From contig JAUXOG010000075.1 of assembly GCA_030682385.1 (NCBI GenBank), forward strand, positions 1,825 to 65,824: a DNA stretch of 64,000 bases, given 5' to 3'. The notes under the pieces are model-generated. The model was not told where the DNA came from. It did not search any database and saw nothing but the letters and a program-made list of their open reading frames with translations. The translations under genes were made by a program, and so were the position numbers. The DNA is from Bacteroidota bacterium. GTDB lineage: Bacteria; Bacteroidota; Ignavibacteria; UBA10030; BY39. This document shows positions 1-31,320 of this stretch, piece after piece; within the stretch, counting starts at the first letter, position 1; every line of letters starts with the position of its first letter.

Positions 1-2751
1 TTCTGAAACTAGAAAATGTGTGTATGGCATATCACCAGAGAACTGTCGCATGAAACATAATGAAATGTTTTCTTTCAACATCTGATCCATATATTCAGGT
101 CTTCCCCAATCAACCATTTTAGGAGTATAATAAATATCTCTCACATCGAACGGTCTATATAGAATCTTTTGCCAGTACGTATCCCAATCATTATCCTTAG
201 ACAAATCAAATCTTGCCTCTTTCAACTTCCAACCTCTTGTGTCTTTCAGCTTGAATGTTTTTTCAATTATTTCATCGCTTATAGAAAGATTTCGGAATTG
301 TCTTATCCTGTTTTCAATTTCCTTTTTTTCGACACCGATAACAAAAGAATCCCGTGCTGTAACAATACCGGTTACGTTCACCGGAAAAATTTTATTAATC
401 TTATCCCACTCAAGGTAACCCTTTATCTTATCCGTATCACGCGGAATGAAAAAGTACCAAGGAGAACCGGGTTTCAATCTATTATAAAGTTTTGCCTTCA
501 GTGTATATTTACTTAGCCATTTATATTTTACTTCCCTTAAACCAAACAACTCTGAATGAAAAACTTTTGCCGGAGTTTTTAGCGGAATAATTCCGCGAAC
601 AATTATTGACTTCTTTTTAATGAATAATGCAATAGCAACACCCTGGCGTATATCAAAAACGTTTTCATCTTTGCCTCCTCCTGCCTGCCGCGCCATAAGT
701 CGCCCTGCCTCATACTCTCTTTTTAGCCATTTTCTACCAAAACCAGTCTTTAAATTCGATTCCCTTGAAACAGATTCTTCTCTGCTACTAAGTTCTTCTA
801 AGTGTATTATTTTAATCGGTAGCCGTGATTTTGTCCACGAAACTTCGCCTTTCAAATGCTCGTCAAATCTACGCCTTATATTATCTGTCTGCCCGATATA
901 AAAACTTTCATCTTTACATTTCAGAACATAAACCCAAAACGACCCTGAACGCGGCGCAGGCAGGTCGGGTGTAATTTCTTTTTTATTGCTGTTGCCGTGA
1001 AGGTCAAGAATGTAAATCTCATTGAAAGTATTCATCAAACTTTGGCGCATACCCCGGAACGTGGGGTTATCGAGATAGCTGTGATTTGTAATCATTCCAA
1101 CAATTCCAAACCCGGCTTTATGAATTTTCCATTGAGCAAAGCGTAGAAACTTCACATAATCATCTTGCAGCCAAAGTTTCTTTTCGCCAAGAGGTTTGTC
1201 ATCAACTTTATAATAACTCAGCGCACCGTCAAGATCTTCCTTTAGTAATTTTTCAGTCCAGTCGTTTATGTTAGAAGAAATTCCGCTGTAGGGTGGATTG
1301 CCGAGTATTACAAGCACCGGCTGATTCTTTTTCACTTCGGCGGCAAGATGGCTTTCTTCACTCAAAGAACTTAGTCCGGGTATGCTAATCTGTTCAAGGT
1401 CTTCGGTCTCAAGAGTATTTGTGAGATAGAGTTTAAATCTTTCATCATTTTTTAACGGATAACCGAGTTCTTCAAACAGAAAGCCCATCTTCAAATGTCC
1501 GATTGCATAAGGCGCCATCATCAATTCAAATGCATAAAAGTTTTGCAGTATTTGCCCCCTTAATAATTGACCATCCACTCCGCCTTCGCCGTAATTGGAA
1601 CTATATTCTTCGACCGCAATTTTAATTGCCTCAGCAGGAAAAGTTAATGTTCCGCCCGCAGGATCCAGTAGCGTAACATTCTCGTTTGCCAAACCATCAT
1701 AAAGATCAAAATGGGTTTTAAGTATTTGGTTAATCGAACGTACTATGTAACCCACTACCGGTTCCGGTGTATAATAAACTCCCCGCTTCTCTCTGATTGA
1801 AGGATCGTACGCCGTAAGAAAGGTTTCGTAAAAATGAATAATTGGGTCTTTACCTTTTCCTTCGGTGTAATAATCGTGCAGTATTTTTTTTACGTCTGTT
1901 ACTTTCAATACTTCAGTTATATCTTCTATTATTATCTGCAAAGATTTTGGGGGATCGCCCAAAGAGATAAAACGGAAAACATCTTTCAATATTCCGATTG
2001 TATTTGGAATAAATTTGAAAGCAAGCTCACGATTGAAGTCGCTATTCGCGCGAGTTCTTGCTGCAAAAAGTCCGTAAGTCAGTGTTTGCGAATAGAGATC
2101 GGCGAATTGTTCTTTCGTTAGAGTTCCGATTAAATACTTTTTAAAAGCTTCATAAAAACCGAGTATAGTTTTTCTGCCGGTTTTTTCTTCTTCTTCTAAC
2201 TCGATACTAACGACTTCATCTTTTAGGAAACGAGTTCTTTTTGCTAACTCGACTGCTAATGTTTTAGCGCTATTAATTTTCGGTAGAGAAAAAGAAAAGA
2301 AAAGATTCAGTAAATCGTAAAACTCGTTTTCATTCTCGACAGGGGGTGCTGTTTGAAGTTTTCGAGCTATTTTAGACCTGCCGATGGATGTTTTTGCAAT
2401 TAGTTCACCATCGCGGTATAGTCGAAACTCATAAAAATTTGTGAGAATAATATTTGGAAAAGTGTTCAGATAGCGTTGAAGCTGTCCTGTGTCTTCGATG
2501 TAGCTGAGGTTTTCGACGGATGGTTCTTTTGCTTCGATGTAGCCGGTGATATGATTTTTTCCGTCCCAAACTCTGAAATCGGGATTTCCCGCATCTGTCT
2601 TTTTTGGAAGGATGGTAATATCAACGTTCTTGATTTTGTTAGCAACAGCAAAATCTAAAAGAAGTTTTTCAAGATGTTTATAGAAACTTTCTTCACGCGC
2701 ATTACCTTTGTTAATAGTGTGCTGAAGATTTTCTAAGTAATTTTTTAACAA
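1..2751 (-). CDS. Fused Type IIL/IIG restriction-modification enzyme, MmeI-like, N-terminal PD-(D/E)XK endonuclease plus N6-adenine MTase. The 3' end lies beyond the window edge. Probable TTG start at 2749-2751.
   Basis: My reverse-strand translation reads an open frame to position 1. Nuclease motifs seen: ...GNAREESFYKHLEKLL...NPDFRVWDG...GYIEAKE... (PD..EAK) and ...NFYEFRLYRDG... Methyltransferase motifs seen: motif I LLDPAGGTLTF and motif IV VLVILGNPPYSG. After motif IV come ...ILDLHGNS... and ...GKDENVFDIRQGVAIA. The frame has no ATG after the upstream stop. This ORF is absent from the supplied track, presumably because it runs off the window edge. Confidence 0.7.
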   Translation of the reverse strand, partial: MLKNYLENLQHTINKGNAREESFYKHLEKLLLDFAVANKIKNVDITILPKKTDAGNPDFRVWDGKNHITGYIEAKEPSVENLSYIEDTGQLQRYLNTFPNIILTNFYEFRLYRDGELIAKTSIGRSKIARKLQTAPPVENENEFYDLLNLFFSFSLPKINSAKTLAVELAKRTRFLKDEVVSIELEEEEKTGRKTILGFYEAFKKYLIGTLTKEQFADLYSQTLTYGLFAARTRANSDFNRELAFKFIPNTIGILKDVFRFISLGDPPKSLQIIIEDITEVLKVTDVKKILHDYYTEGKGKDPIIHFYETFLTAYDPSIREKRGVYYTPEPVVGYIVRSINQILKTHFDLYDGLANENVTLLDPAGGTLTFPAEAIKIAVEEYSSNYGEGGVDGQLLRGQILQNFYAFELMMAPYAIGHLKMGFLFEELGYPLKNDERFKLYLTNTLETEDLEQISIPGLSSLSEESHLAAEVKKNQPVLVILGNPPYSGISSNINDWTEKLLKEDLDGALSYYKVDDKPLGEKKLWLQDDYVKFLRFAQWKIHKAGFGIVGMITNHSYLDNPTFRGMRQSLMNTFNEIYILDLHGNSNKKEITPDLPAPRSGSFWVYVLKCKDESFYIGQTDNIRRRFDEHLKGEVSWTKSRLPIKIIHLEELSSREESVSRESNLKTGFGRKWLKREYEAGRLMARQAGGGKDENVFDIRQGVAIALFIKKKSIIVRGIIPLKTPAKVFHSELFGLREVKYKWLSKYTLKAKLYNRLKPGSPWYFFIPRDTDKIKGYLEWDKINKIFPVNVTGIVTARDSFVIGVEKKEIENRIRQFRNLSISDEIIEKTFKLKDTRGWKLKEARFDLSKDNDWDTYWQKILYRPFDVRDIYYTPKMVDWGRPEYMDQMLKENISLCFMRQFSGDMPYTHFLVSE
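700..950 (-). other. In-frame GIY-YIG (UPF0213/YhbQ-type) nuclease domain embedded in the MTase domain of the RM enzyme
   Basis: Translated segment: SFWVYVLKCKDESFYIGQTDNIRRRFDEHLKGE...RESNLKTGFGRKWLKREYEAG. It lies between LDLHGNSNKKEITPD and GGGKDENVFDIRQGV of the methyltransferase. It shows the GIY/YIG hallmarks plus a conserved Arg and a distal Glu. No stop codon or frame change occurs across it. Confidence 0.6.
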
Positions 2752-2864
2752 AGATAAACCTTTAAATGATTGTTAATTCTCTCAATTTTTCAGTTAGTCA
2801 GCTGGCTAAAAACTAACAAAAAATTGATTTACTTCCAATATCATTCGTTATCCTTGATTATCGG

Positions 2865-4025
2865 TCAAGATTTTAATTTCCGTCTTAACTCATTTTCAGT
2901 TGGTAAAGTCAATTTATATTTGGAAGCAAACACCTTATTGTCTAAACCACCTAAAATGTATTTTGCAAATAAATCATCTTTCTTTGCACAAAGAATAAGC
3001 CCTATCGGATTGTTCTCATCTTCTTGTTTTTCATTCTCTTTGAAGTAGTTCAAATAAAAATTCATCTGACCTACATCTGCGTGGTCAAGGTCGCCTGTTT
3101 TTAAATCGATTAATACAAAGCATTTCAGCAGACGATTATAAAATACCAAATCAATGTAATAATGGCGATTGGCAATTGTTATTCTTTTCTGGCGGGCAAC
3201 AAATGTGAAACCCTTTCCAAGTTCCAATAAAAAATACTGGAGTTTATCGATAAGTGTTTGCTCTAATTGGCTTTCGGTATAAGCTGACTCTTCCTTAAGA
3301 TTAAGAAATTCTAAAATATAAGGGTCCTTTATTGCGTCTTCTGGTTTTTCTAAAATTTGTCCCTTTTTTGCTATTTTCATTACGGCTTTGGTATCTTTAC
3401 TGAGAGTCAATCTTTCAAAAAGCATTGAATTTATTTGCCTCTTAAGTTCTCTGACCGACCAGTTGTTCTGGAACGCTTCTTTTTCATAGAATGAACGAGC
3501 AAGTGGCTCTTCTACTTTTAGCAACTCGCAATAATGCGACCATGAAAGTATCGGTTTGAATTGAAAAGAAAGTGTCGGACGAATTTCAGATTTCCTTGAT
3601 AATACCTGAGATTTATTTCCCTTGATGAATTTCGCAGACAGTGTCTGAGTTTTTTCAGACATCTTCTTGGTTACTCTTGTTGGTATTTGAAATTTTTGTT
3701 TCTCTAAAGATTCGTCAGACAGCGTCTGACGAATTGGGAATGATTGATAAAAAAGCCTCATCATTTTTAAATTTGTTGATGAAAAACCTCTCCCAAATTT
3801 TTGTAACATATCTTTTGACAATCGCTCTATCAAACGCTCACCATATTCTCCGTGTATTCTCCCTTTCTGTTCAAACTCAACAATTTCTTTTCCGATCTCC
3901 CAATATGCTAATACTTGGGTTTGGTTTATTTCTCTAACGACTTTCCTTCTTGCGTCAGATAAAATCGAAGCGATTCGTTTGAAGAGGTTATCATAAATTT
4001 TGGGAACGATTCTTTTATATTTCAT
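2865..4025 (-). CDS. YhcG/DUF1016-family PD-(D/E)XK nuclease-like protein
   Basis: 386 aa. The C-terminal region has IDLVFYNRLLKCFVLIDLKTGDLDHADVGQMNFYLNY, typical of the DUF1016 restriction-endonuclease-like fold. It sits 113 nt upstream of the RM enzyme start on the same strand. Confidence 0.6.
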   Translation of the reverse strand: MKYKRIVPKIYDNLFKRIASILSDARRKVVREINQTQVLAYWEIGKEIVEFEQKGRIHGEYGERLIERLSKDMLQKFGRGFSSTNLKMMRLFYQSFPIRQTLSDESLEKQKFQIPTRVTKKMSEKTQTLSAKFIKGNKSQVLSRKSEIRPTLSFQFKPILSWSHYCELLKVEEPLARSFYEKEAFQNNWSVRELKRQINSMLFERLTLSKDTKAVMKIAKKGQILEKPEDAIKDPYILEFLNLKEESAYTESQLEQTLIDKLQYFLLELGKGFTFVARQKRITIANRHYYIDLVFYNRLLKCFVLIDLKTGDLDHADVGQMNFYLNYFKENEKQEDENNPIGLILCAKKDDLFAKYILGGLDNKVFASKYKLTLPTENELRRKLKS

Positions 4026-7838: not shown

Positions 7839-7957
7839 ATTATACAAAAATCATTTAATAGTCACAAAGCACATGCGATTTTAGGCGTGGATGTTATGCT
7901 TATTGCAGACGGATTTGTTTGATAATAATGCGGATAGTAGGGAATCCCGAACTTGAT

Positions 7958-8622
7958 TCAGGGCTGCCTGTGTTGAGCCGCATGTCTTGCCTTATTTATT
8001 CTTTGAAAAAGAGTATAAATATATGGTCGAGTATCTCCCGAAGGCATTTGATACAGATAAGAAAAATATTTCAGCAACTTAAAATCATTACCTAAAAATT
8101 CTTCGATCATCCGGTGATCGTAATTCTTCACATCAAGACCACTGCATTTTTTTGCCCCTTCAAGAGAAAATACTCCAATAATTACAAAACCATCTTTCCT
8201 AACAAGTTTTTTTAATGTTTCAAGATATCCTTTTTGTTGGTTTTCTTCGATTAAAAAATGCAGGCCTGTTCTGTCGTGCCAAATATCAACACTTTTGATT
8301 TGTAATATATTTTTTGGATTTGTAATATCATCTACAATCCATCTAATTTTATCAGCGTCTTTAGCGTCTATCAATTTCTTCGCTCGAGCCAGCGCTGTTT
8401 CGCTAATGTCAGTAGCAACGATGTTTAAGTAAGAATCCTCTACCAAATTCTTAATTAATGTATCGCACCGGAACCAACATCTAAAATTGTAGCGTCCTTG
8501 TTAAGGTTACAACTTCTTATTAAATCTAAAGACGGTTGAGGAGTTTCTTCGTACCATCCGAGTTTGTTTATTTCATTTTTTGAATAAACATTATCCCAAT
8601 GATTTTTATAATCTATCATAAT
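7958..8622 (-). pseudogene. Class I SAM-dependent methyltransferase interrupted by a 1-nt frameshift right after motif I
   Basis: N-terminal piece (about 8459-8622): MIDYKNHWDNVYSKNEINKLGWYEETPQPSLDLIRSCNLNKDATILDVGSGAIH then a stop. C-terminal piece (7958-8446): ...TLIKNLVEDSYLNIVATDISETALARAKK... This continues the expected methyltransferase fold in a different frame. Confidence 0.55.
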
Positions 8623-14457: not shown

Positions 14458-16578
14458 TCAGCGAATCAATATCATTTTCTTGACCTCTACAAACGAGTCG
14501 GTTTGTAACTTGTAAAAGTAAATTCCACTAGACAAACCGGCGGCATTCCATATAATTTCATAACTACCCATTTTCTTGAATTCATTATCTAGTGTTGCTA
14601 CTTCTTGGCCCAAAATATTGAACACTTTCAATGTCACGTAATTATCAATTGGCAATTGATAATTGATAATTGTCAACGGGTTGAATGGGTTAGGATAATT
14701 TTGATATAATGAAAAATCTGTTGGGTAATGATTGTTGTTCGGGTTTTTAACCGATAATCCGCTCGTGGTGGTGCGTAGTATTGTTCCATCCTTCCCAACA
14801 ATAGTGCCGGTATTCACATCTGTAAAAGAAATTCCAAGAAGTGGATTGTTTACACCGCTAGTTTGTTTTTGCCACGATTGACCGCCGTCAGTAGTTCGTA
14901 AAATTAATCCTTGACTGCCAGTTATAAAGCCTATTAACTCATTAAGATATTGTACAGCAAACAAATCTTCGGTCACAATGCTGGTTTCTGCATACCATAA
15001 ATCGCCTCTGTTTGTTGTTCGTAATATTATTCCTCCGTTACCGACAATTGTTCCAATAATGTTATTTGCAAATGCAATGCTATTTAAATCGTTTGGTGTA
15101 TTACTTTGTTTATTTACCCATTCAATTCCTTTATCTGTTGTGTGAAGAATTATCCCATTTTTTCCCACAGAAAAGCCAATGTTTGATTTTGTGAAAGCAA
15201 TATCATTAAGGTCGAATGTTATATTGCTTTCTTGAGCCGACCAAGTAATACCTTTGTCAGTTGTAGACTTTATTGTTCCGCTTGATCCGACAACGTATCC
15301 GGTATCTTCATTTATAAAGTAAAGCCCGTAATATGTTCTTGCCGTGCCGCTAATTGAGTCGCTGCTTTGAATTGTCCACGACATACCTGAATCTGTTGTC
15401 CGTAGTATTGTCTGGCAATCGCCAACAATTATCCCATAGTTATTTATAAAAAATATTCCATAAAGGTGTCTCCCTATCCAGTTTCGTATCCGCTTCCAGT
15501 TTGAGCCGCCATCTGTAGTGTGAACAATCATTCCATACTCACCTACAGCTATCCCAGTGGCCTGATTGAAAAAGTAAACATCGTAAAGGTTGTTCATGAT
15601 CTGAACGCTTGGATTTGTCCAGTTGATTCCTCCATCTGTCGTATGAACAATTAGTCCGTTTGTACCGACAGCCAGACCATTAGATTTATCTAAAAACTGA
15701 ACTCCATAAAGGTTATAATCTTGATTTATTGAATGATCGCTCCAGTTTAGCCCGCCATCGGTGGTTTGTATTATTGTTCCGTAATTTCCTACTGCAACTG
15801 CAGTTAGCGAGTCAATACTAAATACGTCATTTAGTACGTATGGCGTACCGCAATATTGTGCTGTCCACGTACTACCGCCATCGGTAGTGCGATAAGCGAT
15901 ATTTCCACCAACAGCAAAACCTTTTAGTGAATCTATAAAAGATAAATGATTTAATATAACTGTCGAATCGAAATTAATATTATACCAGTTATTACCCGCG
16001 TCTGTGGATTTCAAAATAAATCCTTCGGGTCCGGCGATGATAACATTATTCTTATTTAAAAATAGAACATCGGTTAAAGAGAAATGGGGTTGTACAATAG
16101 TTTGTGTAGTCCATATTTGCCCGCCATTTGTTGTTCGAAGGATCGTCCCATCCTCTCCGACCACAATACCTGTATCAATACTATTAAAATGAACTCCCAA
16201 TAAATTGCTTGATGTACCACTCAATTGAAATACCCATGTGTAACCGCCGTCGGATGTTTTAATAATTGTCCCATTGTTGCCGACTCCAATTATGTTTAAA
16301 GAGTCAAGAAAAATTATATCATTTAACGTGTGTGAAGTAATACTCGTTAGTGTAGTCCAAGTAACACCACGGTCAAGGGTTCTCAAAATAGTACCACTTT
16401 CTCCAATTGCAAACCCATAATTTGAATGATAAAATGTTAATTCTCGTAATGTATTGTTTTGAAGAGGAGGGGTTTGACTGTACCATCCGGTCTGTGCTGA
16501 ATTATTTATAGAATAAAAGACAATTAAAAATAAAAATACTAAATATTTATTAAGGATTTTAAGCATGTCATTCTCCAT
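14458..16578 (-). CDS. Secreted BNR/Asp-box repeat protein with T9SS C-terminal sorting domain
   Basis: Signal peptide. About 15 repeats of S/T-x-D-G-G-x-T/N-W. The C-terminus NPFNP...GIYFYKLQTDSFVEVKKMILIR matches Por_Secre_tail. Confidence 0.75.
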   Translation of the reverse strand: MENDMLKILNKYLVFLFLIVFYSINNSAQTGWYSQTPPLQNNTLRELTFYHSNYGFAIGESGTILRTLDRGVTWTTLTSITSHTLNDIIFLDSLNIIGVGNNGTIIKTSDGGYTWVFQLSGTSSNLLGVHFNSIDTGIVVGEDGTILRTTNGGQIWTTQTIVQPHFSLTDVLFLNKNNVIIAGPEGFILKSTDAGNNWYNINFDSTVILNHLSFIDSLKGFAVGGNIAYRTTDGGSTWTAQYCGTPYVLNDVFSIDSLTAVAVGNYGTIIQTTDGGLNWSDHSINQDYNLYGVQFLDKSNGLAVGTNGLIVHTTDGGINWTNPSVQIMNNLYDVYFFNQATGIAVGEYGMIVHTTDGGSNWKRIRNWIGRHLYGIFFINNYGIIVGDCQTILRTTDSGMSWTIQSSDSISGTARTYYGLYFINEDTGYVVGSSGTIKSTTDKGITWSAQESNITFDLNDIAFTKSNIGFSVGKNGIILHTTDKGIEWVNKQSNTPNDLNSIAFANNIIGTIVGNGGIILRTTNRGDLWYAETSIVTEDLFAVQYLNELIGFITGSQGLILRTTDGGQSWQKQTSGVNNPLLGISFTDVNTGTIVGKDGTILRTTTSGLSVKNPNNNHYPTDFSLYQNYPNPFNPLTIINYQLPIDNYVTLKVFNILGQEVATLDNEFKKMGSYEIIWNAAGLSSGIYFYKLQTDSFVEVKKMILIR

Positions 16579-16930: not shown

Positions 16931-17467
16931 ATGTCAAATATTATTAGATCAACAACAGTAATCGGACTGACTCATAAAGGCAAATGCGTAATGGGCAGCG
17001 ACGGACAGGTAACTGTCGGTAACGCTATCATGAAACACGGCGCTAAGAAAGTCCGCAAGCTTTACAACGACACTGTACTTGCTGGTTTTGCCGGCGCCGC
17101 CGCCGATGCTTTTACTCTCTTCGAACGTTTCGAAGACAAGCTTCAGGAATATCGAGGTAACTTATTACGTGCCGCAGTCGAGCTTACAAAAATGTGGCGC
17201 ACCGATAAATACCTCCGTCACCTCGAAGCACTGCTTACTGTTCTTAATAAAGAGCAAGCGTTAATAATATCAGGGACAGGCGAAATAATAGAACCCGACG
17301 ACGGGATAATTGCAATCGGATCGGGTGGAAGTTACGCGCTTGCTGCCGCTCGTATGCTCGTAAAATACTCCGATCTATCTACGCGTGAAATCGTAGAAGA
17401 ATCCTTAAAAGCTGCGGGCGATATCTGCATCTATACAAATCATAATATTACAATTGAAGAATTATAA
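16931..17467 (+). CDS. hslV: ATP-dependent protease subunit HslV
   Basis: Segment [24 protein letters not shown]...[19 protein letters not shown]. Confidence 0.9.
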
Positions 17468-18849
17468 TGAATAAAAAATCGAAGAAACAAAATCACCGCG
17501 AATTAACTCCACGCGAAATTGTAAAAGAGTTGGATAAATATATCATCGGTCAGGATGCTGCGAAAAAATCTGTAGCTATTGCAATCCGCAACCGGTGGCG
17601 TCGGCTTCAAGCTCCCGAAAACCTTCGTGAAGAAATTATGCCCAACAATATCATTCTGATCGGACCTACGGGTGTGGGTAAAACAGAGATTGCCCGGCGA
17701 CTTGCAAAGCTTGTCGATGCGCCATTCCTGAAAGTTGAAGCTTCCAAATACACAGAGGTCGGTTACGTTGGTAGAGATGTCGAATCGATGGTGCGGGATC
17801 TAACTGAATATTCGGTAAGCATGGTCAAAGCCCAGAAGGCAGCTGAGGTACAGGACAAAGCACGCAAGAACGCGGAGGAGAGGATACTTGATATATTGAT
17901 TCCACTTCGACGGAAGACGACTGGTGAAGCTGCACTAGAAAAACCTGAAGATGCCGAAAATATTTCATTCACCAGAGAACGTTTCAGAGAAAAATTAGCT
18001 AAAGGCGAACTCGATGAAAGGGTCATTGAATTGGATGTAACGACTGATCAAATTCCTGCTATGCAGGTTTTTGGTCCTGTTAATTTGGAAGAGATGGGGG
18101 TTAATATACAGGAAATGTTCGGCAGTATTTTACCGAAAAAAATGAAGAAGCGCAAGTTGACAATTGCCGAAGCAAAGGTAGTTATTGCCCACGAGGAAGC
18201 CCAGAAGTTGATAGATATGGATGCTGTAATTAAAGAAGCGCTGTTACGGGTTCACGACTCAGGAATAATTTTCCTTGATGAAATTGATAAAATTGCCGGC
18301 TCAAGAAGTCAGTCGCACGGGCCCGACGTATCACGTGAAGGTGTTCAGCGCGATTTGCTTCCGATAGTTGAAGGGTCGAACGTGATGACAAAATATGGGA
18401 TGGTGAAAACCGACCACGTTTTGTTTATTGCCTCCGGAGCTTTTCATATGACAAAACCTTCCGATTTAATTCCTGAACTGCAAGGAAGATTTCCAATCAG
18501 AGTTGAGCTAAACAGTTTAACGGAAGACGACTTTGTAAAAATTCTGACGATACCGCAGAATGCACTCATCAAGCAATATATCGCAATGCTGCAAACGGAA
18601 GGTATTGATCTGCAGTTTTCGGATGATAGTATAAAGGAGGTCGCAAAAATAGCGAGGGAAGTTAACGAGCAGGTAGAAAACATCGGCGCGCGGCGTTTGC
18701 ATACAATTTTGACGACTTTGTTAGAGGAGTTGCTCTATAATGCACCCGATAATCTGAGTGAGAATAAAATTGTCGTTACAAAAGAAATGGTTCAGGACAA
18801 ACTTGCAAGTATCGTGAAGAATAGAGATTTGAGCAGATATATCTTGTAA
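17467..18849 (+). CDS. hslU: ATP-dependent protease ATPase subunit HslU
   Basis: Walker [17 protein letters not shown], second-region DEIDKI and sensor motifs. The start overlaps the hslV stop. Confidence 0.9.
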
Positions 18850-18931
18850 AATTAAAAATCAAACTCATTAATGAAAGCAATCCAAATTTCTTTATGCATA
18901 TATTGATAAGCTGTGAGAATACAGTATAACA

Positions 18932-21900
18932 ATGACGGACGATTACATCCCCAAATCTTCAGATGAATGGAAATCTTGGCTTGCTGAGCAAGAGAAGATA
19001 AACATTGAAGTTTATCTCAAGCAGCCACAACGTATTATTCAAGATTACAACACTGAAAAAGAAACCACACGAGATTATATCGGTCGTGAAATATTCGAAT
19101 TATTACAGAATGCAAACGATGCAGCTGCTGAAGTAGATCAACGCGGAAAGGTCCTCATTGAACTTACGAATGATCTTCTTATAGTTGCCAATAGTGGTGA
19201 ACCATTTTCAATTGGTGGTGTTAATTCACTTCTCTTTAGCCATATTAGTCCTAAGAAGAAGCGTAAGAATCTTATAGGTCAAAAAGGCTTAGGTTTTCGT
19301 TCAGTTCTTAATTGGTGCCAACAACCGACTATCTTTAGTGGCCATCTTAACCTTGCATATCAAGAATCAAAACGTAAAATACTTTTTGATAAACTTATAT
19401 CCAAAAAAGAAGAAATCGCTACACTTATCAAGAGAGAACGAGAATATCCGGATGAAGTCATAATTCCCACTTTACCATTCCCATGTTTTATCGACGCTTC
19501 TTCAGTAATTAGCGATCAATTGTTTAACAAATTATTCAAAATACGAAATCAGAACTACGATACCGTTATAGGCATACCATTTGACAAACCGGAATACTAT
19601 ACGGAAGCAAAGAAACAGTTGGTGTCTCTAGATTCTGCTATCATGCTATTTGCAGGGTCACTTGATGAAATACTGATTCGAATAGACGATGAAATTTATA
19701 GTCATTGGATGGTGGAAGAACGCGACAAACAGAAACAAACTGCGACTATAAAATGGCATGATTCACAGAAGATCCACTGGCAGATCTATGAACATAGTGG
19801 GGTGATCAATAACACGCAGAGCAGTATAAAGAGTGATTTGGGAAATGAATATACAATGATAATCGCGATTCCGAAAAATCAAAAAGTTGATTCTTCGACA
19901 CCTTTGTTCTCTTTTTTCCCTTTAGAACTGAAATTTCCATTTCCGGTTTTTTGCCATGTAACACTTGAATTGGAAGGTAATCGAAAACATCCACGCCCGA
20001 GTGCATCAAATATTGCTATTCTAAAAGAACTCACAAAGTTTTTTGCAGAAAAAGCAAGCCAACAAGATATTAGTGATGACCCATGGTCGAGAATACGTCT
20101 CCTTGCGAGGTCAAGTGAACTTGATAAATTCTTGGCAGACATTGATTTCGACAAAATCTTAATCGAGGAGGCAAGAAGACTTAACATCGTTCCAACGTTG
20201 GGTGGGATGCATCTCACTGCATCTAAAACTAAACAAATTAATGCCAAAAAGGTTCACTGGTTACCCCAAGAGCAATTTTCTAATATTGCCCTTTCACCTT
20301 CTTCAACGGAAATAACAAATTTTTATAATGCACTTGGTATTGAATTTATTTCAAATGGTGATCTAACTGAAAAATTAAACATGGTTGAGTTTCCAGATAT
20401 TGCTGCGCGGGCAACATTGATTGCGAATTTAATTAAACATAATTTGATTCCTGAAAATCCCGTTCCCCATCTCCTAATTGAGCAATCGGGCAGTAGGATA
20501 ACTGAAAATAGTCGCACCTTCTTACAATCTCGAGAGCAGAAAGTATTTGAGAGACCCGAATGGCTTAATATTCAATTTCTCCACGATGAGCTCAGGATAA
20601 AGCTGATGGAGCAGCTTGAGTTGACTGAAGTTCGTGAACTTCGTCAGAAATTATCTCCATTTGGTGTAAATGAATATTCACTAAGTTCTATAGCTTCTGC
20701 GCTTATCGCAGAGGCGAACAAAAGGATTACGTCTGAGCCTACTAAGAAAAAAGAAACTTACGATGATCTATTTATTACGTTGTTTTATCTCTATTCACAG
20801 CGTGGTGAAGCATCATTCCCTGAGGACATTGCCGTTCCGTTACGCACAAAAGCTGGTTCTTATGAAAGTGCAAAAACACTTTATTTCAGTGAGTCGTATA
20901 GTGTGAATGGTGATTGGCTCTCGGAATTGTACAAGTTGACACCAGATAAGTTGTTGGCTAATTTAAGCGATTTGGGTGTCGATGGTAACGATCTAAATTA
21001 TATTTCTTTTCTAAAGTGGATCGGTGTGGCAGATTTCCCACGAGAAATAATCCTTGATTCAGTTGAAAACTCTTACAAAAATTATGTTCTTGATTCATTA
21101 CCATATGAACCCGATGGAATAATTCTCGGTGAATATAAATATAAAAGAAGGGAGGATTTCAATGAGCCGGAAATTAGATCTATCAAGTCCTTTGATGGGA
21201 TTGAAAATTTCCCAAAGGCTGATCCGGCCGCAATAATAGTATGGTTAGCGTTAGATTCTCGTTGTAATCAATTGAGATCGAATCATCCATCTTTTGCATT
21301 GTTAACAGATCGTCCCTCAGGAGTCCGAAGATGGAATCGTAAAACTTATACTGGTCCAATACCTCACTATGCTAAATGGGGACTTGAAAGCTCATCGTGG
21401 TTAATAATAACCGATGGATCAAAAAGAAAACCATCTGAATGCATGATTGGGGAAAAGAGTCTTGAGAAAATATTTCCATCACCCGCAAGATTCAAGCATC
21501 CTTTATTTGATAAATATCTCCATGATCCTATTATGTTTCGAAGAGCATGGGAAAATGCTGGTGTTATTCCTGATGTAAATTATTTGTCGCGTAATCAAAT
21601 CAAAGATATATTAATCGCATTGCCTGAAAAGAACCCGAGCGGTGAATCCACAGGAACATTTTACAGAAACATTCTAGATGAAATCCGCACTGGAAATTTG
21701 GAGTGGGATGGACCAGATTATGATTTTATTTCAAATGGAAAAATGTGGGGAAAAGGTCCTGAAGGATTTAAATATTATCAAGTGAATGAACTACATCATA
21801 CAGATTCGCAGCAATTCCCAGAAATACTGACTTCAAAATTAAAAATGGTTGACCTACCAAAACGTTATCGCAATACAGAGATTAAGCATGCGTTCGGAAT

Positions 21901-23119
21901 AGAGCCATTGGATTCGACAAAACTCAAGTTTACTGATATCCAATTCGAAAAAAGGCCGGAAAGTGATAGCCTTCAATCACAATTTAATCAGATTAAACAT
22001 TTACTTCTAGCTTTACGTCCACCCAAATCAAGGAAGTCAAGTGAAGTTTCTAATTTTCGTGCGATCGAGTTAGTAACATGTGCTAAAATCGAGGTTGGGA
22101 TAGCGTATGAGTTGATATCTATCAAGACAGAATTTATAGAAGCTTTTAAATGGATCATCAAAGATGGGAAAGCGTTCATTTTAGTCCCAGATACACAGAA
22201 TGCTTCATTCCGTTCAGCAGTATGTTCGCGGAGTGTCGGACAAATAGTAGCCAGTGTTTTCAATTTGGAGAATCCTACTGAGTTTGCTTCCATCATTCAA
22301 GCTGATGAAGCCGATAGACATGAATTACTCAAACAAATGTTGGGTGAAGAAGTATTGCCGGATTTAGACAAGCTTAAACAAGAATTAAAAACGGATGAAG
22401 CACCCCTTCCTCCAATTATTATTCCACCCTTAGAAAATGGTAATCACACTTCTACACCATCAGGAGGTGCAAAACCACCAATTGGATTCCCTCCAACAAC
22501 CGTTACGCCAGCTACTCCTGAACCGCCGGTTCCAATATCTACAGATACTGTAAAGATATCTCCCGAAGAACATGAACCATCCCCACCGAAGAAACCAAAA
22601 GAAGTTGTGAGGAAAAAGGAAAGCGTTCCAACATTTGGCGGAGGAGAGACAAAAAGAGTTACTAATTGGAAGCGTTGCGAAGAACTTGCTGTTGTATTTG
22701 AAGAATCAGAGATTCGTTTTCCCATTAAGGTATCAGATATCGTTGGCTACAAGGGTCCAAAGTGCGATGTGCTTAGTTTTTCTTCAGCTGAACAACGGAT
22801 CATATTCCAACAGCTATCTTCTGATGAAAAAAATATCAACGATGTCGAGCGGTTTATAGAAGTGAAAGGTAGTGTTAATGAAAAAGGTGCAATAGATTTG
22901 AAGGGTAATGAGTTGACTGCCGCCAAGATATACAGTAATAAGTATTTTTTATATCGCATGTACGAGAAAACACAAAATGAATACTATGTTCTCATTGTCG
23001 TCAATCCACTAAACCAAAAAGAAGCACTCGAAGAGATTTGGGAAATCATCCCAGATAGAGCGAAAGATGCAACGAGGTTTCACATCGAAATTGGAATTCA
23101 GGAGATGAAGAACCCATGA
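18932..23119 (+). CDS. Giant (1395 aa) sacsin/MORC-like GHKL ATPase with Pro-rich linker and C-terminal DUF3883 (PD-(D/E)xK-like) domain. Candidate defense protein.
   Basis: N-terminal motifs: [11 protein letters not shown] (GHKL N-box) and [11 protein letters not shown] (G-box). Pro-rich segment PLPPIIIPP...[16 protein letters not shown]-terminal segment: GPKCDVLSF...IEVKGS...YVLIVV (D...E.K) in a region matching DUF3883. No signal peptide. Confidence 0.55.
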
Positions 23120-23397
23120 CATACGATTACACAGAAGATAAACTCGTTCAAGAAATCACAGTCATAAAATACGATTTACCTGAAAACAGTTATGTAACCT
23201 TGAAAATATATGATGTTTTGGGCAGAGAGGTTGTTAGGTTGGTTGATGGATTCCAAGAAGCTGGTTATAAATCTATAGAATTTGATGCTCTAAATTTGAC
23301 TAGCGGTGTTTATTTTTATAAACTTGTGGTGAGTTCATCGAACCCATTGAATGCAAATAATTATACTTCAATCAAGAAAATGTTATTAATTCGATAA
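23116..23397 (+). CDS. Orphan T9SS (Por) C-terminal sorting domain ORF (93 aa). Its ATG overlaps the stop of the giant gene (ATGA).
   Basis: Segment ...[20 protein letters not shown]...[12 protein letters not shown]...SIKKMLLIR aligns with the C-terminal domains of the two BNR proteins in this window. It lacks the upstream NPFNP and any cargo domain. Confidence 0.5.
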
Positions 23398-23572
23398 ATT
23401 CAAATTTTATATATTGTAACATAAGGAAAATTAATCGACAGTCGAATAACCAACATCGAATAACGAATCCGCCTGCGTTCCAGAAAACGGAACTTCCGCT
23501 TACACTTCGTTTCAGCGGACAAGTCGGCGGACAGGTATCGAACATCCAATAAATTAATCACAGGAGATCTAA

Positions 23573-25567
23573 ATGGAACCAACAACACGTAGTTTACCGC
23601 CGAATGCCTACAAGGAATTAAAACCGGGTGAGAAATATATTCCCGTAGTTCCGGCAGGGACAATCATTCCCGAAGTTACCCCCTGGTCTTTAACTTGGGG
23701 TTTAATTATGGCTGCTGTATTTTCAGCCGCCGCCGCTTATTTAGGATTAAAGATCGGACAAGTTTTTGAAGCGGCTATTCCAATTGCAATCATAGCAGTC
23801 GGTTTAACAGCAATAACAAAACGTAAAAATGCTTTATCCGAGAATGTTATTATTCAATCTATCGGCGCTGCGTCGGGTGTCGTGGTAGCGGGCGCTATTT
23901 TTACAATCCCCGCACTTTACATTCTTCACGGTGAAGGAACGATAGATATAATACCAACTTTCTGGCAAATCTTTTTTGCCTCTCTCTTTGGGGGATTTCT
24001 TGGTATTCTATTTCTAATTCCATTCAGAAAATATTTTGTTCAAGAAATGCACGGACAATTTCCATTCCCCGAGGCAACTGCCACTACTGAAATTTTAGTA
24101 GCGGGTGAAAAGGGCGGACAGCAGGCAAAAGTTCTTGTCTCGGCTGCAATCATCGGCGGCTTGTACGATTTTGCGATTCAAACGTTCGGAGCGTGGAAGG
24201 AAGTCTTCAACTCCAAAATATTGCCGGTCTTCGATAAAATGTCGGATGTCTATAAACTTGAAGGTAAATTAAATGTCGGTGCTGCGGTTTTAGGACTTGG
24301 CTATATAGTCGGTTTGAAGTATGCTTCAATAATTGCAGCGGGTTCTTTCCTATCATGGTTTTTGCTAATTCCTGTTTTTTCTTATGTAGGTAGCGATTTA
24401 ACAGTAACTATAGGTTCAACGGCTACTAAATTAATTGGCCAGATGTCTGCCGATGAAATATTCCGAGCGTATGTCAGGCATATTGGAATAGGCGGTATCG
24501 CTATGGCAGGTATGATAGGCATTTATAAATCTCGTAAAATAATCGGCGGGGCATTCAAACTTGCATTCGAAGAAATTTTCAGAAAGAAACATATCGCCGA
24601 GCGAACAATAGTCCGTACCGAAAAAGAACTTTCGATGGGATTAGTTGTAGGTTTAATCGCAGTGCTCGCAGTATTCATATTTATTTTCTTCGCTGTTGCT
24701 GTTGTCGATACTGTGTGGTTCGCAATCACAGCATTACTAATTGTTTTGATAGTCTCTTTTCTCTTTACTACGGTTGCAGCACGAGCAATAGCTATCGTCG
24801 GAACAAACCCGGTTTCGGGAATGACGCTGATGACTTTGATTTTGTCTTCATTCATACTCGTGTCGATTGGATTAAAAGGGAGCGCGGGAATGGTTTCTGC
24901 GTTAATCATCGGCGGTGTGGTTTGCACGGCTCTCTCGATGGCTGGCGGTTTTATCACTGATTTAAAAATTGGTTATTGGCTGGGAACTACACCAATCAAG
25001 CAGCAGTCGTATAAATTTTTAGGGACAATCGTTGCAGCCGCAACTGTCGGTTTGGTAATTATGCTGCTGAACGAAACTTACGGCTTCGTCGGCGAAGGTG
25101 CGCTCGTTGCACCACAGGCAAATGCTATGGCGGCAGTAATCAAACCGTTGATGTCCGAAATGCCGGCGCCTTGGGCATTGTATATTGCGGGCGCTTTAGT
25201 AGCTCTTACTTTACAAATGATAAACGTACCGCCGCTTGCTTTTGCACTCGGCATGTACATTCCTCTCGAACTTAATACACCAATTTTGCTTGGTGGACTT
25301 ATTGCGCACATCGTTTCTACTCGAACGAAAGATGAGCCGCTAAACAACGCACGCCGTGAACGCGGAACTTTGATTGCCTCTGGCTTCATCGCAGGCGGTG
25401 CTATTATGGGTGTAGTGAGTGCAACGTTGAAATATTTCAACTTCAATTACGAAAACTTTGGTTGGCACTGGGGCGAGTCATTCGGCGGCGAATTGTTAGC
25501 AGTATTTATGTTCCTCGGTATCGCCGCCTATTTCATCTGGGATTCAAAACGCGCGAAGCCTGAATAG
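23573..25567 (+). CDS. OPT-family oligopeptide transporter
   Basis: 664 aa, polytopic. Segment MEPTTRSLPPNAYKELKPGEKYIPVVPAG...TPWSLTWGLIMAAVFSAAAAYLGLKIGQ is typical of OPT family N-termini. Confidence 0.75.
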   Translation: MEPTTRSLPPNAYKELKPGEKYIPVVPAGTIIPEVTPWSLTWGLIMAAVFSAAAAYLGLKIGQVFEAAIPIAIIAVGLTAITKRKNALSENVIIQSIGAASGVVVAGAIFTIPALYILHGEGTIDIIPTFWQIFFASLFGGFLGILFLIPFRKYFVQEMHGQFPFPEATATTEILVAGEKGGQQAKVLVSAAIIGGLYDFAIQTFGAWKEVFNSKILPVFDKMSDVYKLEGKLNVGAAVLGLGYIVGLKYASIIAAGSFLSWFLLIPVFSYVGSDLTVTIGSTATKLIGQMSADEIFRAYVRHIGIGGIAMAGMIGIYKSRKIIGGAFKLAFEEIFRKKHIAERTIVRTEKELSMGLVVGLIAVLAVFIFIFFAVAVVDTVWFAITALLIVLIVSFLFTTVAARAIAIVGTNPVSGMTLMTLILSSFILVSIGLKGSAGMVSALIIGGVVCTALSMAGGFITDLKIGYWLGTTPIKQQSYKFLGTIVAAATVGLVIMLLNETYGFVGEGALVAPQANAMAAVIKPLMSEMPAPWALYIAGALVALTLQMINVPPLAFALGMYIPLELNTPILLGGLIAHIVSTRTKDEPLNNARRERGTLIASGFIAGGAIMGVVSATLKYFNFNYENFGWHWGESFGGELLAVFMFLGIAAYFIWDSKRAKPE

Positions 25568-29166: not shown

Positions 29167-31320
29167 ATGTTTAAAAAGTTAATCGTTTTAACTTTGATAT
29201 TATTCGTATCCTCGTATTCACAATGGAGATGGTTAAATCCAAAACCGCATGATAAAACAATAAATGAAATTGTTTTTTTAAACAATAGTTCTGGCATTGC
29301 TTTAGGAGAAAAAGGGAGCTGTATCGTTACTTCGGACGGGGGGATAATTTGGACGATAAAACCCTCCGCTGGTTCCTTTGATTTTATTAAAATGCATTGT
29401 GTTGATAACGATAATATATATGCTCTTAGCCAAAAAATGTTTTTTGATGGAATAGAAAGATATATTTATAAATCATCAAACGGAGGAATAAATTGGAGTA
29501 AAGTCGAAATCGGATTAGGAGGCTTCATATCAGATATTTCATTCTATGACAATTATAATTTCTGGGTTGGATTTAGAAAAGGGAGTGGTTGTTTTGTCTT
29601 TGGAGATTGTCTTCTTAAAACTATCGACGGTGGAACATCATGGACTGAGGTAGAAGATAATTTAATTGCGAGTCCCAGAGCTTTATTAAGTATTAGCGAG
29701 TTGAACATTCTTGCGGTTTGCCAGAACATCAGACAATCTTATAATTCTTATATTATTCAGACGACAGACGGTGGTAATACCTGGGAGCAAAAGTATGACT
29801 TAGGCTTATTAACCGTGTACGTTTTTAAAAATATTTCAGCTAATTTGATTCTCGGAGTTGGGTGGGGAGGGAAAATTGTCAAATCTACAGACAACGGAAA
29901 TAGTTGGTTAGATGTTTCTATTAATACCGATATATCTTTTTCAAAAATTGCTGTTTCAAACGAAAAGGATATTCTGATTCTTGGCAGCACAAACAACAAG
30001 AGCGAAGTTTATCAATCAACAAATGATGGAGACACGTGGAGTAAAGTTTTTGAGTTGAATAAGAAATTAGATGCAATTTCCTTTAAACCAAACGGAGAAA
30101 TATGGCTTGGTGGCAACAGCGGAATTCTTTTCAAGTCCACAAATAAGAGAAACGAGTGGATACTGACAAATTGTTTTACATATGAAAATTTAAAAAAGGT
30201 GTTTTTTATAAATCTGAGAATTGGATGGATAGTGGGTGAAAACGGTTATGTAATCAAAACTACAAATGGCGGTGAATCTTGGATACAGCAGTCGTTATCT
30301 ACAAATGAGACAATGAATTCCTGTGTGTTTGTGAACGACCAGGTTGGCTATATTATTGGAACGCAGGGAAAAATTTTTAAAACTTCAAACGGCGGTAGCA
30401 ATTGGTTACAAAAATATACAAACGAGTTACTCATTCTTAAACATATTGCGCGAATAGATGGTGATATATTAATCGTAACAGGTGATAACGGTACAATCCT
30501 GAGAACATCCGACGGTGGAGAGACATGGAATAATTCAAATTCAGGAATTCAAGGTAATAACAGAGCTGTAGATTTAGTCGCACCAAATCCTAATTCAATA
30601 TTTGCCGCTTTTGATAGTGTATTATATTTTAGTTCTGATACCGGTAAATCGTGGTCAGCCGAAAGAACGATCCCTAAAAATCCTGCCATGCCCTCAATTA
30701 CAAAAATAAGTTTTCCTTCTCAACAAGTGGGTTATGCATTTATTCGGACGAGCTTGTATGCTAATTATTGTTACTATAAGACCACCAATGGCGGTATAAA
30801 CTGGAGAATAATCGGAACAAGTTTTCCGTGTAGGGATGCGTCCAAGTTACTGTTTCTTGATGACAGTACGGGCTGGGTAATTGATGATAAGATGATGTTT
30901 ACATCGGATGGTGGTCAAGTATGGGGTTTTAATGAGGATATCCGTGGAGTAGATATGCAGATGTTTGACAAGGACAAAGGTTGGATCGTTGGGAATGATG
31001 GATCTATTCTTCGAACAGAAATTTATGATCCTTTAACTGATGCTAAGGAAATTCCTAAAAATTTAGCATTATACCAAAACTATCCCAATCCATTTAATCC
31101 GGCTACCAAAATTATGTATAATGTTTCTTCATCCACATTTATAAAGATTAGAATTATTAACTTGCTCGGAGAGGTTGTGGATGATCTCATTAATGAATAT
31201 AAAGACGTTGGACAATATGTAGTTGAATGGGATGGAAAAAATCTCCCCTCTGGCATATATTTTTATCAAATGTTGGCTAACAACATTCAGGTTACTCGCA
31301 AAATGATCCTCATACGGTGA
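29167..31320 (+). CDS. Secreted BNR/Asp-box repeat protein with T9SS C-terminal sorting domain (paralog of 14458-16578)
   Basis: Signal peptide. Repeats of SxDGGxxW. C-terminus LYQNYPNPFNP...SGIYFYQMLANNIQVTRKMILIR. Confidence 0.75.
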   Translation: MFKKLIVLTLILFVSSYSQWRWLNPKPHDKTINEIVFLNNSSGIALGEKGSCIVTSDGGIIWTIKPSAGSFDFIKMHCVDNDNIYALSQKMFFDGIERYIYKSSNGGINWSKVEIGLGGFISDISFYDNYNFWVGFRKGSGCFVFGDCLLKTIDGGTSWTEVEDNLIASPRALLSISELNILAVCQNIRQSYNSYIIQTTDGGNTWEQKYDLGLLTVYVFKNISANLILGVGWGGKIVKSTDNGNSWLDVSINTDISFSKIAVSNEKDILILGSTNNKSEVYQSTNDGDTWSKVFELNKKLDAISFKPNGEIWLGGNSGILFKSTNKRNEWILTNCFTYENLKKVFFINLRIGWIVGENGYVIKTTNGGESWIQQSLSTNETMNSCVFVNDQVGYIIGTQGKIFKTSNGGSNWLQKYTNELLILKHIARIDGDILIVTGDNGTILRTSDGGETWNNSNSGIQGNNRAVDLVAPNPNSIFAAFDSVLYFSSDTGKSWSAERTIPKNPAMPSITKISFPSQQVGYAFIRTSLYANYCYYKTTNGGINWRIIGTSFPCRDASKLLFLDDSTGWVIDDKMMFTSDGGQVWGFNEDIRGVDMQMFDKDKGWIVGNDGSILRTEIYDPLTDAKEIPKNLALYQNYPNPFNPATKIMYNVSSSTFIKIRIINLLGEVVDDLINEYKDVGQYVVEWDGKNLPSGIYFYQMLANNIQVTRKMILIR

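Follow-up and report, generated by a model that had tools for sequence, protein, structure and literature searches.

A T9SS sorting-domain tail between hslU and an oligopeptide transporter gene is probably a maintained junction chimera made by import of a Tiamat-type TmtA gene

Three described kinds of element bear on a small open reading frame (ORF) of 93 codons at positions 23116-23397 of a 64,000-nucleotide stretch of a Bacteroidota metagenome-assembled genome (MAG), the whole of which we call the window. The first is the type A C-terminal domain (CTD) of substrates of the type IX secretion system (T9SS; PF18962, TIGR04183), which is found at the C-terminus of a Sec-exported cargo protein, forms a complete seven-strand sandwich with the first-strand motif (Q)NYPNPFNP, and has a GxY/GVYFYK core and a K-x-x-x-K/R-type C-terminal ending; it is the PorV/PorU machinery that recognises and cleaves it. 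The second is the chimeric or truncated ORF at an insertion junction, in which illegitimate recombination at microhomology fuses unrelated fragments in frame behind an imported translation-initiation region; insertion-junction remnants normally decay. The third is the defence system Tiamat, which Millman et al. in 2022 are said to have presented as a single-gene system (TmtA). Tiamat occurs in hotspots of Pseudomonas (PMC12629846), and it is covered by the PADLOC models PDLC03964-72, which we used for its detection.

The ORF has traits of all three. Our explanation, which we consider probable when taken as a whole, is that the import of a TmtA gene made a junction chimera that has since been maintained. 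Its first part, that the Tiamat gene together with the stub of a neighbouring gene overwrote a T9SS substrate gene and created the fusion ORF, appears very likely. We also favour the second part, in which selection maintains the ORF as a coding gene, but with more reserve. The features on which the argument rests are the following:

18932..23119, + strand: giant gene, Tiamat-type TmtA, 1395 aa (PADLOC, NF047352, PF13020)
18870..23160, + strand: proposed imported block of ~4.3 kb (upstream spacer, TmtA and 5' stub of the downstream gene), left boundary approximate
23100..23105, + strand: AGGAGA, Shine-Dalgarno-like motif within the 3' end of the TmtA reading frame (codons Q-E-M); 10 nt separate it from the ATG of the ORF
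23116..23397, + strand: 93-aa ORF, an open frame and proposed junction chimera, the main feature
23116..23160, + strand: stub, codons 1-15 of the ORF, the putative start of the gene natively 3' of TmtA
23156..23162, + strand: putative recombination junction, ACAG/CTACA-type microhomology between partner gene and CTD
23161..23397, + strand: CTD part of the ORF, codons 16-93 and stop, type A, probably from the resident substrate, without the first-strand motif YPNYPNPFNP

The ATG of the ORF shares the tetranucleotide ATGA with the TGA stop of the 1395-aa ORF upstream. Its product passes the thresholds of both domain models, Pfam PF18962 Por_Secre_tail (28.2 bits against a cut-off of 27, residues 15-72) and NCBIfam TIGR04183 (31 bits against a cut-off of 23); it does so narrowly, as the first nine model positions are absent and the Por_Secre_tail match begins at model position 10. 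The family resemblance extends to a predicted Ig-like beta-sandwich and to the core elements YDVLGxEV, GxY, GVYFYK and KKMLLIR, and the K-x-x-x-K/R-type ending is present, with ...GVYFYKL...SIKKMLLIR aligning with all CTD relatives. Two of these relatives lie in the window itself, where tblastn aligns the ORF with the C-termini of both genes (E values of 2e-17 and 7e-12, respectively; 42.5% identity for the former):

14458..16578, - strand: BNR/PSII_BNR T9SS substrate with Por_Secre_tail, the closest CTD paralogue of the ORF in the window (42%)
29167..31320, + strand: BNR/Sortilin-like (PSII_BNR/BNR) T9SS substrate with a Por_Secre_tail CTD, 33% identity to the ORF

The existence of such substrates implies that the organism uses a T9SS. 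The ORF itself differs from a type A CTD in two respects. It does not stand at the end of a Sec-exported cargo protein, and the QNYPNPFNP strand of the complete sandwich is swapped for 15 foreign codons: the motif (Q)NYPNPFNP is present in the intact relative L008, in the small proteins P0004-7 and in both BNR proteins, and a foreign stub takes its place in the ORF and its two orthologues (all introduced below). The N-terminus is acidic and has no hydrophobic segment. No other start codon exists upstream in the ORF frame, which is open there for just 19 codons, and therefore no hidden signal peptide is possible. Having neither a signal peptide nor cargo, the product cannot act as a T9SS substrate or secretion signal, and the GenBank name 'T9SS type A sorting domain-containing protein' is misleading on function. 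The initial annotation had described a 93-aa ORF consisting only of a Por_Secre_tail-like domain at the ATGA overlap, similar to the CTDs of the two BNR proteins and non-functional for secretion. All of this agrees with our results except the word 'only', which holds for codons 16-93 and fails for the first ~15 codons, apparently imported from the native neighbour of TmtA.

The former occupant of this site can be recognised in close relatives. Scanning species-representative genomes with the protein of the oligopeptide transporter (OPT) gene that follows the ORF led to syntenic loci in Ignavibacteriaceae MAGs, in which the order rpoN-hslV-hslU-[X]-OPT is conserved (L002, L007, L008, L010, L011 and L073). 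The flanking genes in the window are:

16931-17467, + strand: hslV (NCBIfam HslV, 274 bits), left flank
17467-18849, + strand: hslU (NCBIfam HslU, 640 bits), left flank
23573..25567, + strand: OPT-family oligopeptide transporter (PF03169, 343 bits; TIGR00733, 250 bits), right flank

OPT is 89-97% identical to the window copy in L007-L011 and L073, and the interval X varies widely among these loci. It is empty in the outgroup loci L010, L011 and L073 (OPT ~89-90%) and also in L007 (97%), where hslU lies directly by OPT at a distance of 40-105 nt. In L009 it is a 223-nt spacer containing repeats, and positions 598-823 of that locus form a tandem duplication with a ~90-nt unit (…aataatgaat…cgaataatgaatgatga…ctcaatcatacaaatgac…). 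In L008, whose hslU and OPT are 95% and 96% identical to those of the window, X is an intact ORF of 443 aa with an N-terminus that resembles a signal peptide by inspection (…RQKKRLLALLPLIAPFYVVAQ/DANV), a cargo region that gives a weak match to CarboxypepD_reg, and a canonical CTD ending …GVYFYKFVVSSSKPLNANSYTSIKKMVLIR. Between this CTD and residues 15-93 of the ORF the identity is 69%; the stretch VVSSSxPLNANxYTSIKKMxLIR, with its unusual VVSSSxPLNAN insertion, is common to both. The 443-aa gene thus appears to be the intact form of the replaced T9SS substrate, at the same position between hslU and OPT. The match to the L008 intergenic sequence stops ~20 nt past the hslU stop, which would be the left edge of the import, and the replaced segment measures ~1.1 kb in L008 coordinates, comprising promoter, signal peptide, cargo and first CTD strand. 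The search of related genomes for an ancestral cargo gene, as proposed in the initial annotation, was therefore successful, and the first of its explanations holds in essence: a T9SS substrate gene lost its body to the giant gene, and the tail stayed behind.

Counting the two arrangements described further below, the hslU-OPT interval shows five states among close relatives (empty; repeat spacer; intact T9SS substrate; TmtA with the chimera; TmtA remnant with the chimera) and is a variable recombination and indel hotspot. In L008 (6918-7126 and 4702-6147) a spacer of ~200 nt separates hslV and hslU, whereas the two genes overlap in the window, and rpoN is merely 73% identical. The closest longer CTD relatives of the ORF lie elsewhere. 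These are P0004, P0005 and P0007 (L004 252-686, L006 359-793; 144-145 aa), a family of tiny T9SS substrates, which are 52-59% identical and have in common with the ORF a VVSxxNPLxxNN insertion before the last strand. Unlike the ORF, they consist of a signal peptide, ~45 aa of cargo and a CTD with the full NYPNPFNP strand, and their locus is a different one, on the 3' side of an FGE-sulfatase-like gene; they are paralogues and not the ancestor.

The gene upstream of the ORF has the traits by which TmtA is recognised, namely a full-length model match, sacsin/HATPase-like sequence at the N-terminus and DUF3883/NOV_C towards the C-terminus. The PADLOC TmtA model PDLC03964 matches residues 7-1149 (E=7.5e-239, 794 bits), NF047352 identifies a sacsin-like N-terminal ATPase (72 bits) and PF13020 places NOV_C/DUF3883 at residues 1300-1350 (33 bits). 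Full-length homologues are spread over many phyla. An orthologue of 81% identity (L167-L170) forms a lone insertion at an unrelated locus, between M50 and M17 peptidase genes; a homologue of 55% identity is a lone insertion adjoining holC; and homologues of 50-52% identity lie in defence islands, by AbiE, a phospholipase D (PLD) nuclease and CBASS, or by a KAP NTPase. Since homologues occupy unrelated loci and defence islands, the giant gene can be regarded as a putative mobile anti-phage defence gene. In two of the islands, L172 (438-15132) and L176 (4730-12524), the 50% TmtA homologue is followed by a protein of 1180-1230 aa combining a helix-turn-helix, an SNF2 helicase and NOV_C, in a region dense with defence genes (AbiEi/AbiEii, a small PLD nuclease and a CBASS operon with SAVED, SMODS and Cap2).

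TmtA orthologues at other loci also indicate where the first codons of the ORF come from. In L167-L170, a locus that never held a CTD, TmtA is followed with an ATGA overlap by a 12-codon stub, MTYDYSEDKLVQ*, and then by a few more homologous codons. In L171 (SRR11582139), whose TmtA is 70% identical, a gap of 4-5 nt leads to a gene starting MTYDYSEDKLVQQTTANYFFEKLEW (MTYDYSEDKLVQQTTANYFFEKLEWNSIYAYNDEILG…), which is cut by the contig end. In our nucleotide alignment A5, the window tracks L171/L167 up to ...ATCACAG, i.e. ...GTTCAAGAAATCACAG (23160), and tracks the L008 CTD from TCATAAAATACGATTTACC onward; the sequence across the junction reads GATAAACTCGTTCAAGAAATCACAGTCATAAAATACGATTTACC. The motif of a ribosome-binding site (RBS) before the partner or stub is GAGGAG or GAGGAA in L167 and L171 and CAGGAG in L002 and L005. 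AGGAGA in the window is, on this comparison, the presumed native RBS of the downstream partner of TmtA, and it would look foreign here because it was imported with TmtA from that neighbour. To call it unusual for the lineage, as the initial annotation did, is fair: a motif of the AGGAG/GGAGG type lies 4-20 nt upstream of 4 of the 44 window ORFs of at least 150 aa, against a background of 2%. Of these four, one precedes the OPT gene (23573) and another the BNR gene at 29167.

Two other accounts of the start region were considered. The residues 'TED-KL' could be taken as the homologue of the L008 linker 'PEDFKL' with a 24-nt deletion; this is ruled out by L171/L167, where MTYDYSEDKLVQ belongs to another gene. 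Furthermore, the start codons of TmtA and of the ORF share a 16-nt near-repeat (18932-18947, ATGACGGACGATTACA; 23116-23131, ATGACATACGATTACA; MTDDY and MTYDY), which at no more than 2 mismatches has two matches in the window, both at these sites, with 0.05 expected. It is probably not a target-site duplication, given that a TmtA of 50% identity also begins MTDTEDYIP, and probably reflects a resemblance between two native N-termini. On the far side of TmtA, L171 carries an upstream flanking ORF of 1185 aa (46-3603) without a Pfam or PADLOC match; the closely spaced downstream gene (4-nt gap, MTYDYSEDKLVQQTTANYFFEKLEW...) occupies 7888-8022.

The following course of events would account for these observations. 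A horizontally acquired TmtA very probably overwrote most of the resident T9SS substrate gene between hslU and OPT, bringing along the RBS, the ATGA-overlapped start and the first ~15 codons of its native next gene. Illegitimate recombination at a few bases of microhomology then fused this stub in frame to the CTD from about codon 16 onward, with loss of the substrate promoter, signal peptide, cargo and first CTD strand (YPNYPNPFNP). The product would probably be translated by coupling to TmtA via the imported RBS, yielding a 93-aa cytoplasmic Ig-like beta-sandwich fragment outside the Sec/T9SS route. Moderate purifying selection would have kept the ORF intact in three or more species-level lineages, and in one of them TmtA was subsequently deleted.

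These lineages were found by protein search, which returned two orthologues whose start and junction match those of the ORF. P0002 (85 aa, 73-80% identity; L002/L003) is arranged as hslVU-TmtA-ORF-OPT, with a TmtA of 80% identity. P0003 (85 aa, 65-71% identity; L005) follows hslU and a TmtA remnant and precedes OPT. In L005 the ORF begins 152 nt past hslU, and 146 nt of this gap are a decayed TmtA 3' end, with a frame-breaking indel and a stop codon in the remnant. That L005 might represent a locus never invaded by TmtA is ruled out by the decayed end, and the arrangement points to a secondary deletion of TmtA in which the RBS and the ORF were kept. Synonymous divergence (dS) in the flanks is 0.35-1.8 between chimera lineages. 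For TmtA, the dS between the window and L002 is 0.70, similar to that of the flanks (0.65-1.3), which puts the formation of the junction at roughly the time when these lineages separated. A metagenome scan with a four-sequence CTD alignment retrieved 80 generic CTDs, none of them by hslU, OPT or TmtA, and no further orthologues. The initial annotation had held that a stand-alone CTD ORF in a conserved arrangement in related genomes, with an expressed product, would overturn its view of a leftover tail; half of this was found, in that the stand-alone ORF does recur in a conserved arrangement in relatives and has signs of purifying selection. The ORF is better read as something other than a plain dead relic.

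Selection was assessed on three alleles (window, L002/L003 and L005). The ratio of nonsynonymous divergence (dN) to dS by the NG86 method is ~0.23-0.36 (0.24, 0.30, 0.36) at dS values of 0.49-0.57, with Fisher p values of 1e-4 to 2e-3, and the CTD part alone gives a similar dN/dS; the 14-codon stub is too short for this test. Variable sites fall on the three codon positions as 19/16/34 (p=0.018). The single indel among the three ORFs is 24 nt long and in frame, and stops or frameshifts occur in none of the three lineages. In a neutral, substitution-only simulation, the probability that all three keep the start and stay free of stops was 0.005 when the observed divergence was used and 5e-5 under the synonymous rate. 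The marks of a pseudogene or decaying remnant, a dN/dS near 1 and stops or frameshifts among orthologues, are thus not seen, with the proviso that recombination could mimic selection. We infer that the chimera behaves as a maintained small protein gene and not as a decaying pseudogene. An AlphaFold2 (AF2) model built from 29 sequences (predicted local distance difference test score, pLDDT, 82.6) shows a mostly intact beta-sandwich of six to seven strands, six of them main strands, with residues 1-8 disordered.

Several points weigh against our explanation. The selection tests use three alleles and 85 codons. The locus is a mosaic, L008 rpoN being 73% identical and hslU 95%, and the flank trees are star-like. 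CTD distances place the truncated alleles no closer to each other than to the intact L008, and purifying selection could be mimicked if the tail had been renewed through homologous recombination with strains that carry the intact gene, or through conversion by a paralogous CTD. Translation and stability of the ORF product are deduced from sequence. A Foldseek search of the PDB with the ORF model returned generic Ig-like folds only (FlgD at the top, E>=5e-3), and PADLOC gave no match to the ORF. A search with the 45-aa N-terminus of the native partner of TmtA produced no candidates, and Pfam and PADLOC also returned nothing for it; a resemblance to an HsdR-like N-terminus is conjectural. Finally, TmtA may have arrived in one step, or a larger island may have been trimmed later.

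The strongest alternative, a possible but doubtful one, is that the ORF is a functionless neutral relic whose intactness and low dN/dS stem from repeated replacement of the CTD by recombination with intact-gene strains or by paralogue conversion, the donors themselves being under selection. Such replacement would suit a recombination and indel hotspot with five states in close relatives and mosaic L008 flanks, and would explain why, by CTD distance, the truncated alleles do not form a group apart from L008. It also fits a product without everything that a working CTD needs, and the finding that the L005 branch, from which TmtA has been lost, has the highest dN. However, the stub and junction codons 1-15 have no intact donor here, yet start and frame are kept in all three lineages, and the divergent N-terminal CTD strand of L005 (KVLQWVFPTNGF) is unlike canonical CTDs and hence was not imported from a paralogue. 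The TmtA dS of 0.70 stands for a long time since the junction formed, and the neutral account requires several independent conversion events.

A functional cytoplasmic small beta-sandwich protein, selected for longer than the species of the genus have been separate, with a role either linked to Tiamat or independent of it, seems on balance unlikely. An independent role is suggested by the survival of the ORF after the loss of TmtA in L005. We found no evidence that ties the ORF to TmtA function: TmtA occurs elsewhere without a CTD ORF, and the ORF outlives TmtA in L005. It is accordingly quite improbable that the small beta-sandwich was recruited as a translationally coupled partner that modulates TmtA or senses for Tiamat. 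The ATGA overlap and the imported RBS would give the coupled translation that this idea needs, the ORF has been kept with TmtA in two lineages over a dS of about 0.5-0.7, and the TmtA-less branch has the highest omega (~0.40 against 0.19-0.31, from distances; not significant). On the other hand, TmtA orthologues at other loci (L167-L170, L175 and the defence-island copies) have no CTD ORF, the L005 ORF is intact after the deletion of TmtA, and the ORF has no PADLOC match.

Fusion of the CTD to the giant protein by a programmed -1 frameshift or by read-through, or a recent fission of one gene, is very improbable and is refuted by the comparative data; the initial annotation had raised a -1 frame fusion and a gene fission. 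The two ORFs do share 4 nt, and both here and in L002 the CTD is read in the -1 frame with respect to TmtA. However, in the 19 codons over which the CTD frame is open upstream there is no slippery site of the X XXY YYZ type, as the initial annotation had also noted by eye. In L002, as in L171, a stop and a gap of 4-5 nt separate TmtA from the next ORF, and TmtA homologues across phyla share a constant ...HIEI... C-terminus, none with a CTD. A T9SS signal would moreover be useless to a cytoplasmic ATPase/nuclease-like protein, and the two ORFs are of unrelated origins. An assembly chimera or sequencing error is hardly credible. In its favour, the sequence comes from a MAG, and the Logan contig with the same sequence stops 135 nt past the ORF. 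Against it, that contig, of SRR13727541, is an independent assembly with the same arrangement, and the junction recurs in diverged form (73% and 65% amino acid identity) in three other sequencing runs, with the frame relations conserved.

Two further features of the region downstream of the junction are:

23323..23346, + strand: 24-nt in-frame segment LVVSSSNP, shared by the window and L008, missing in the orthologues of L002 and L005
23398..23572, + strand: spacer before OPT, with an extra GC-rich ~70 nt

The GC-rich stretch of the spacer (~23455-23530; ccgcctgcgttccagaaaacggaac...cggcgg) is absent from L002, L005, L007 and L008. Short CGAATAAC/AACATCGAA repeats in the spacer are common to the L007 and L008 spacers. 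Its folding is not significant (z=-1.2), it has no Rfam match, and a promoter and terminator scan gave 4 sites against 3.8 expected and no terminator.

Compared with described Tiamat systems, the TmtA of the window likewise lies in a variable hotspot and has homologues in defence islands. It differs in being a lone gene flanked by housekeeping genes, hslVU on one side and OPT on the other, in an Ignavibacteriaceae MAG, with the dragged 5' stub of a neighbour, and the ORF belongs to no described Tiamat system; the Tiamat subfamily of L171 may natively be a multi-gene system. The literature on Tiamat with DUF3883 and on orphan CTDs yielded general surveys only. Unlike ordinary insertion-junction remnants, the ORF is intact in three species-level lineages with a dN/dS of ~0.3. 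The mechanism, a junction chimera at the insertion of a defence gene, is ordinary; the survivor is moderately surprising.

The locus allows a base-level reconstruction of how a single-gene defence system lands in a hotspot of the core genome at the cost of a resident gene, with a translatable chimeric ORF as the residue. Automated naming of such ORFs inflates the counts of T9SS substrates in MAGs of Ignavibacteriota and Bacteroidota, and a CTD match alone should not count as a T9SS substrate. If the purifying selection is real, the chimera would be a small natural experiment on how a gene can be born from a piece of a domain, in which a beta-sandwich persists while lacking its first strand and lying in a compartment other than its native one.

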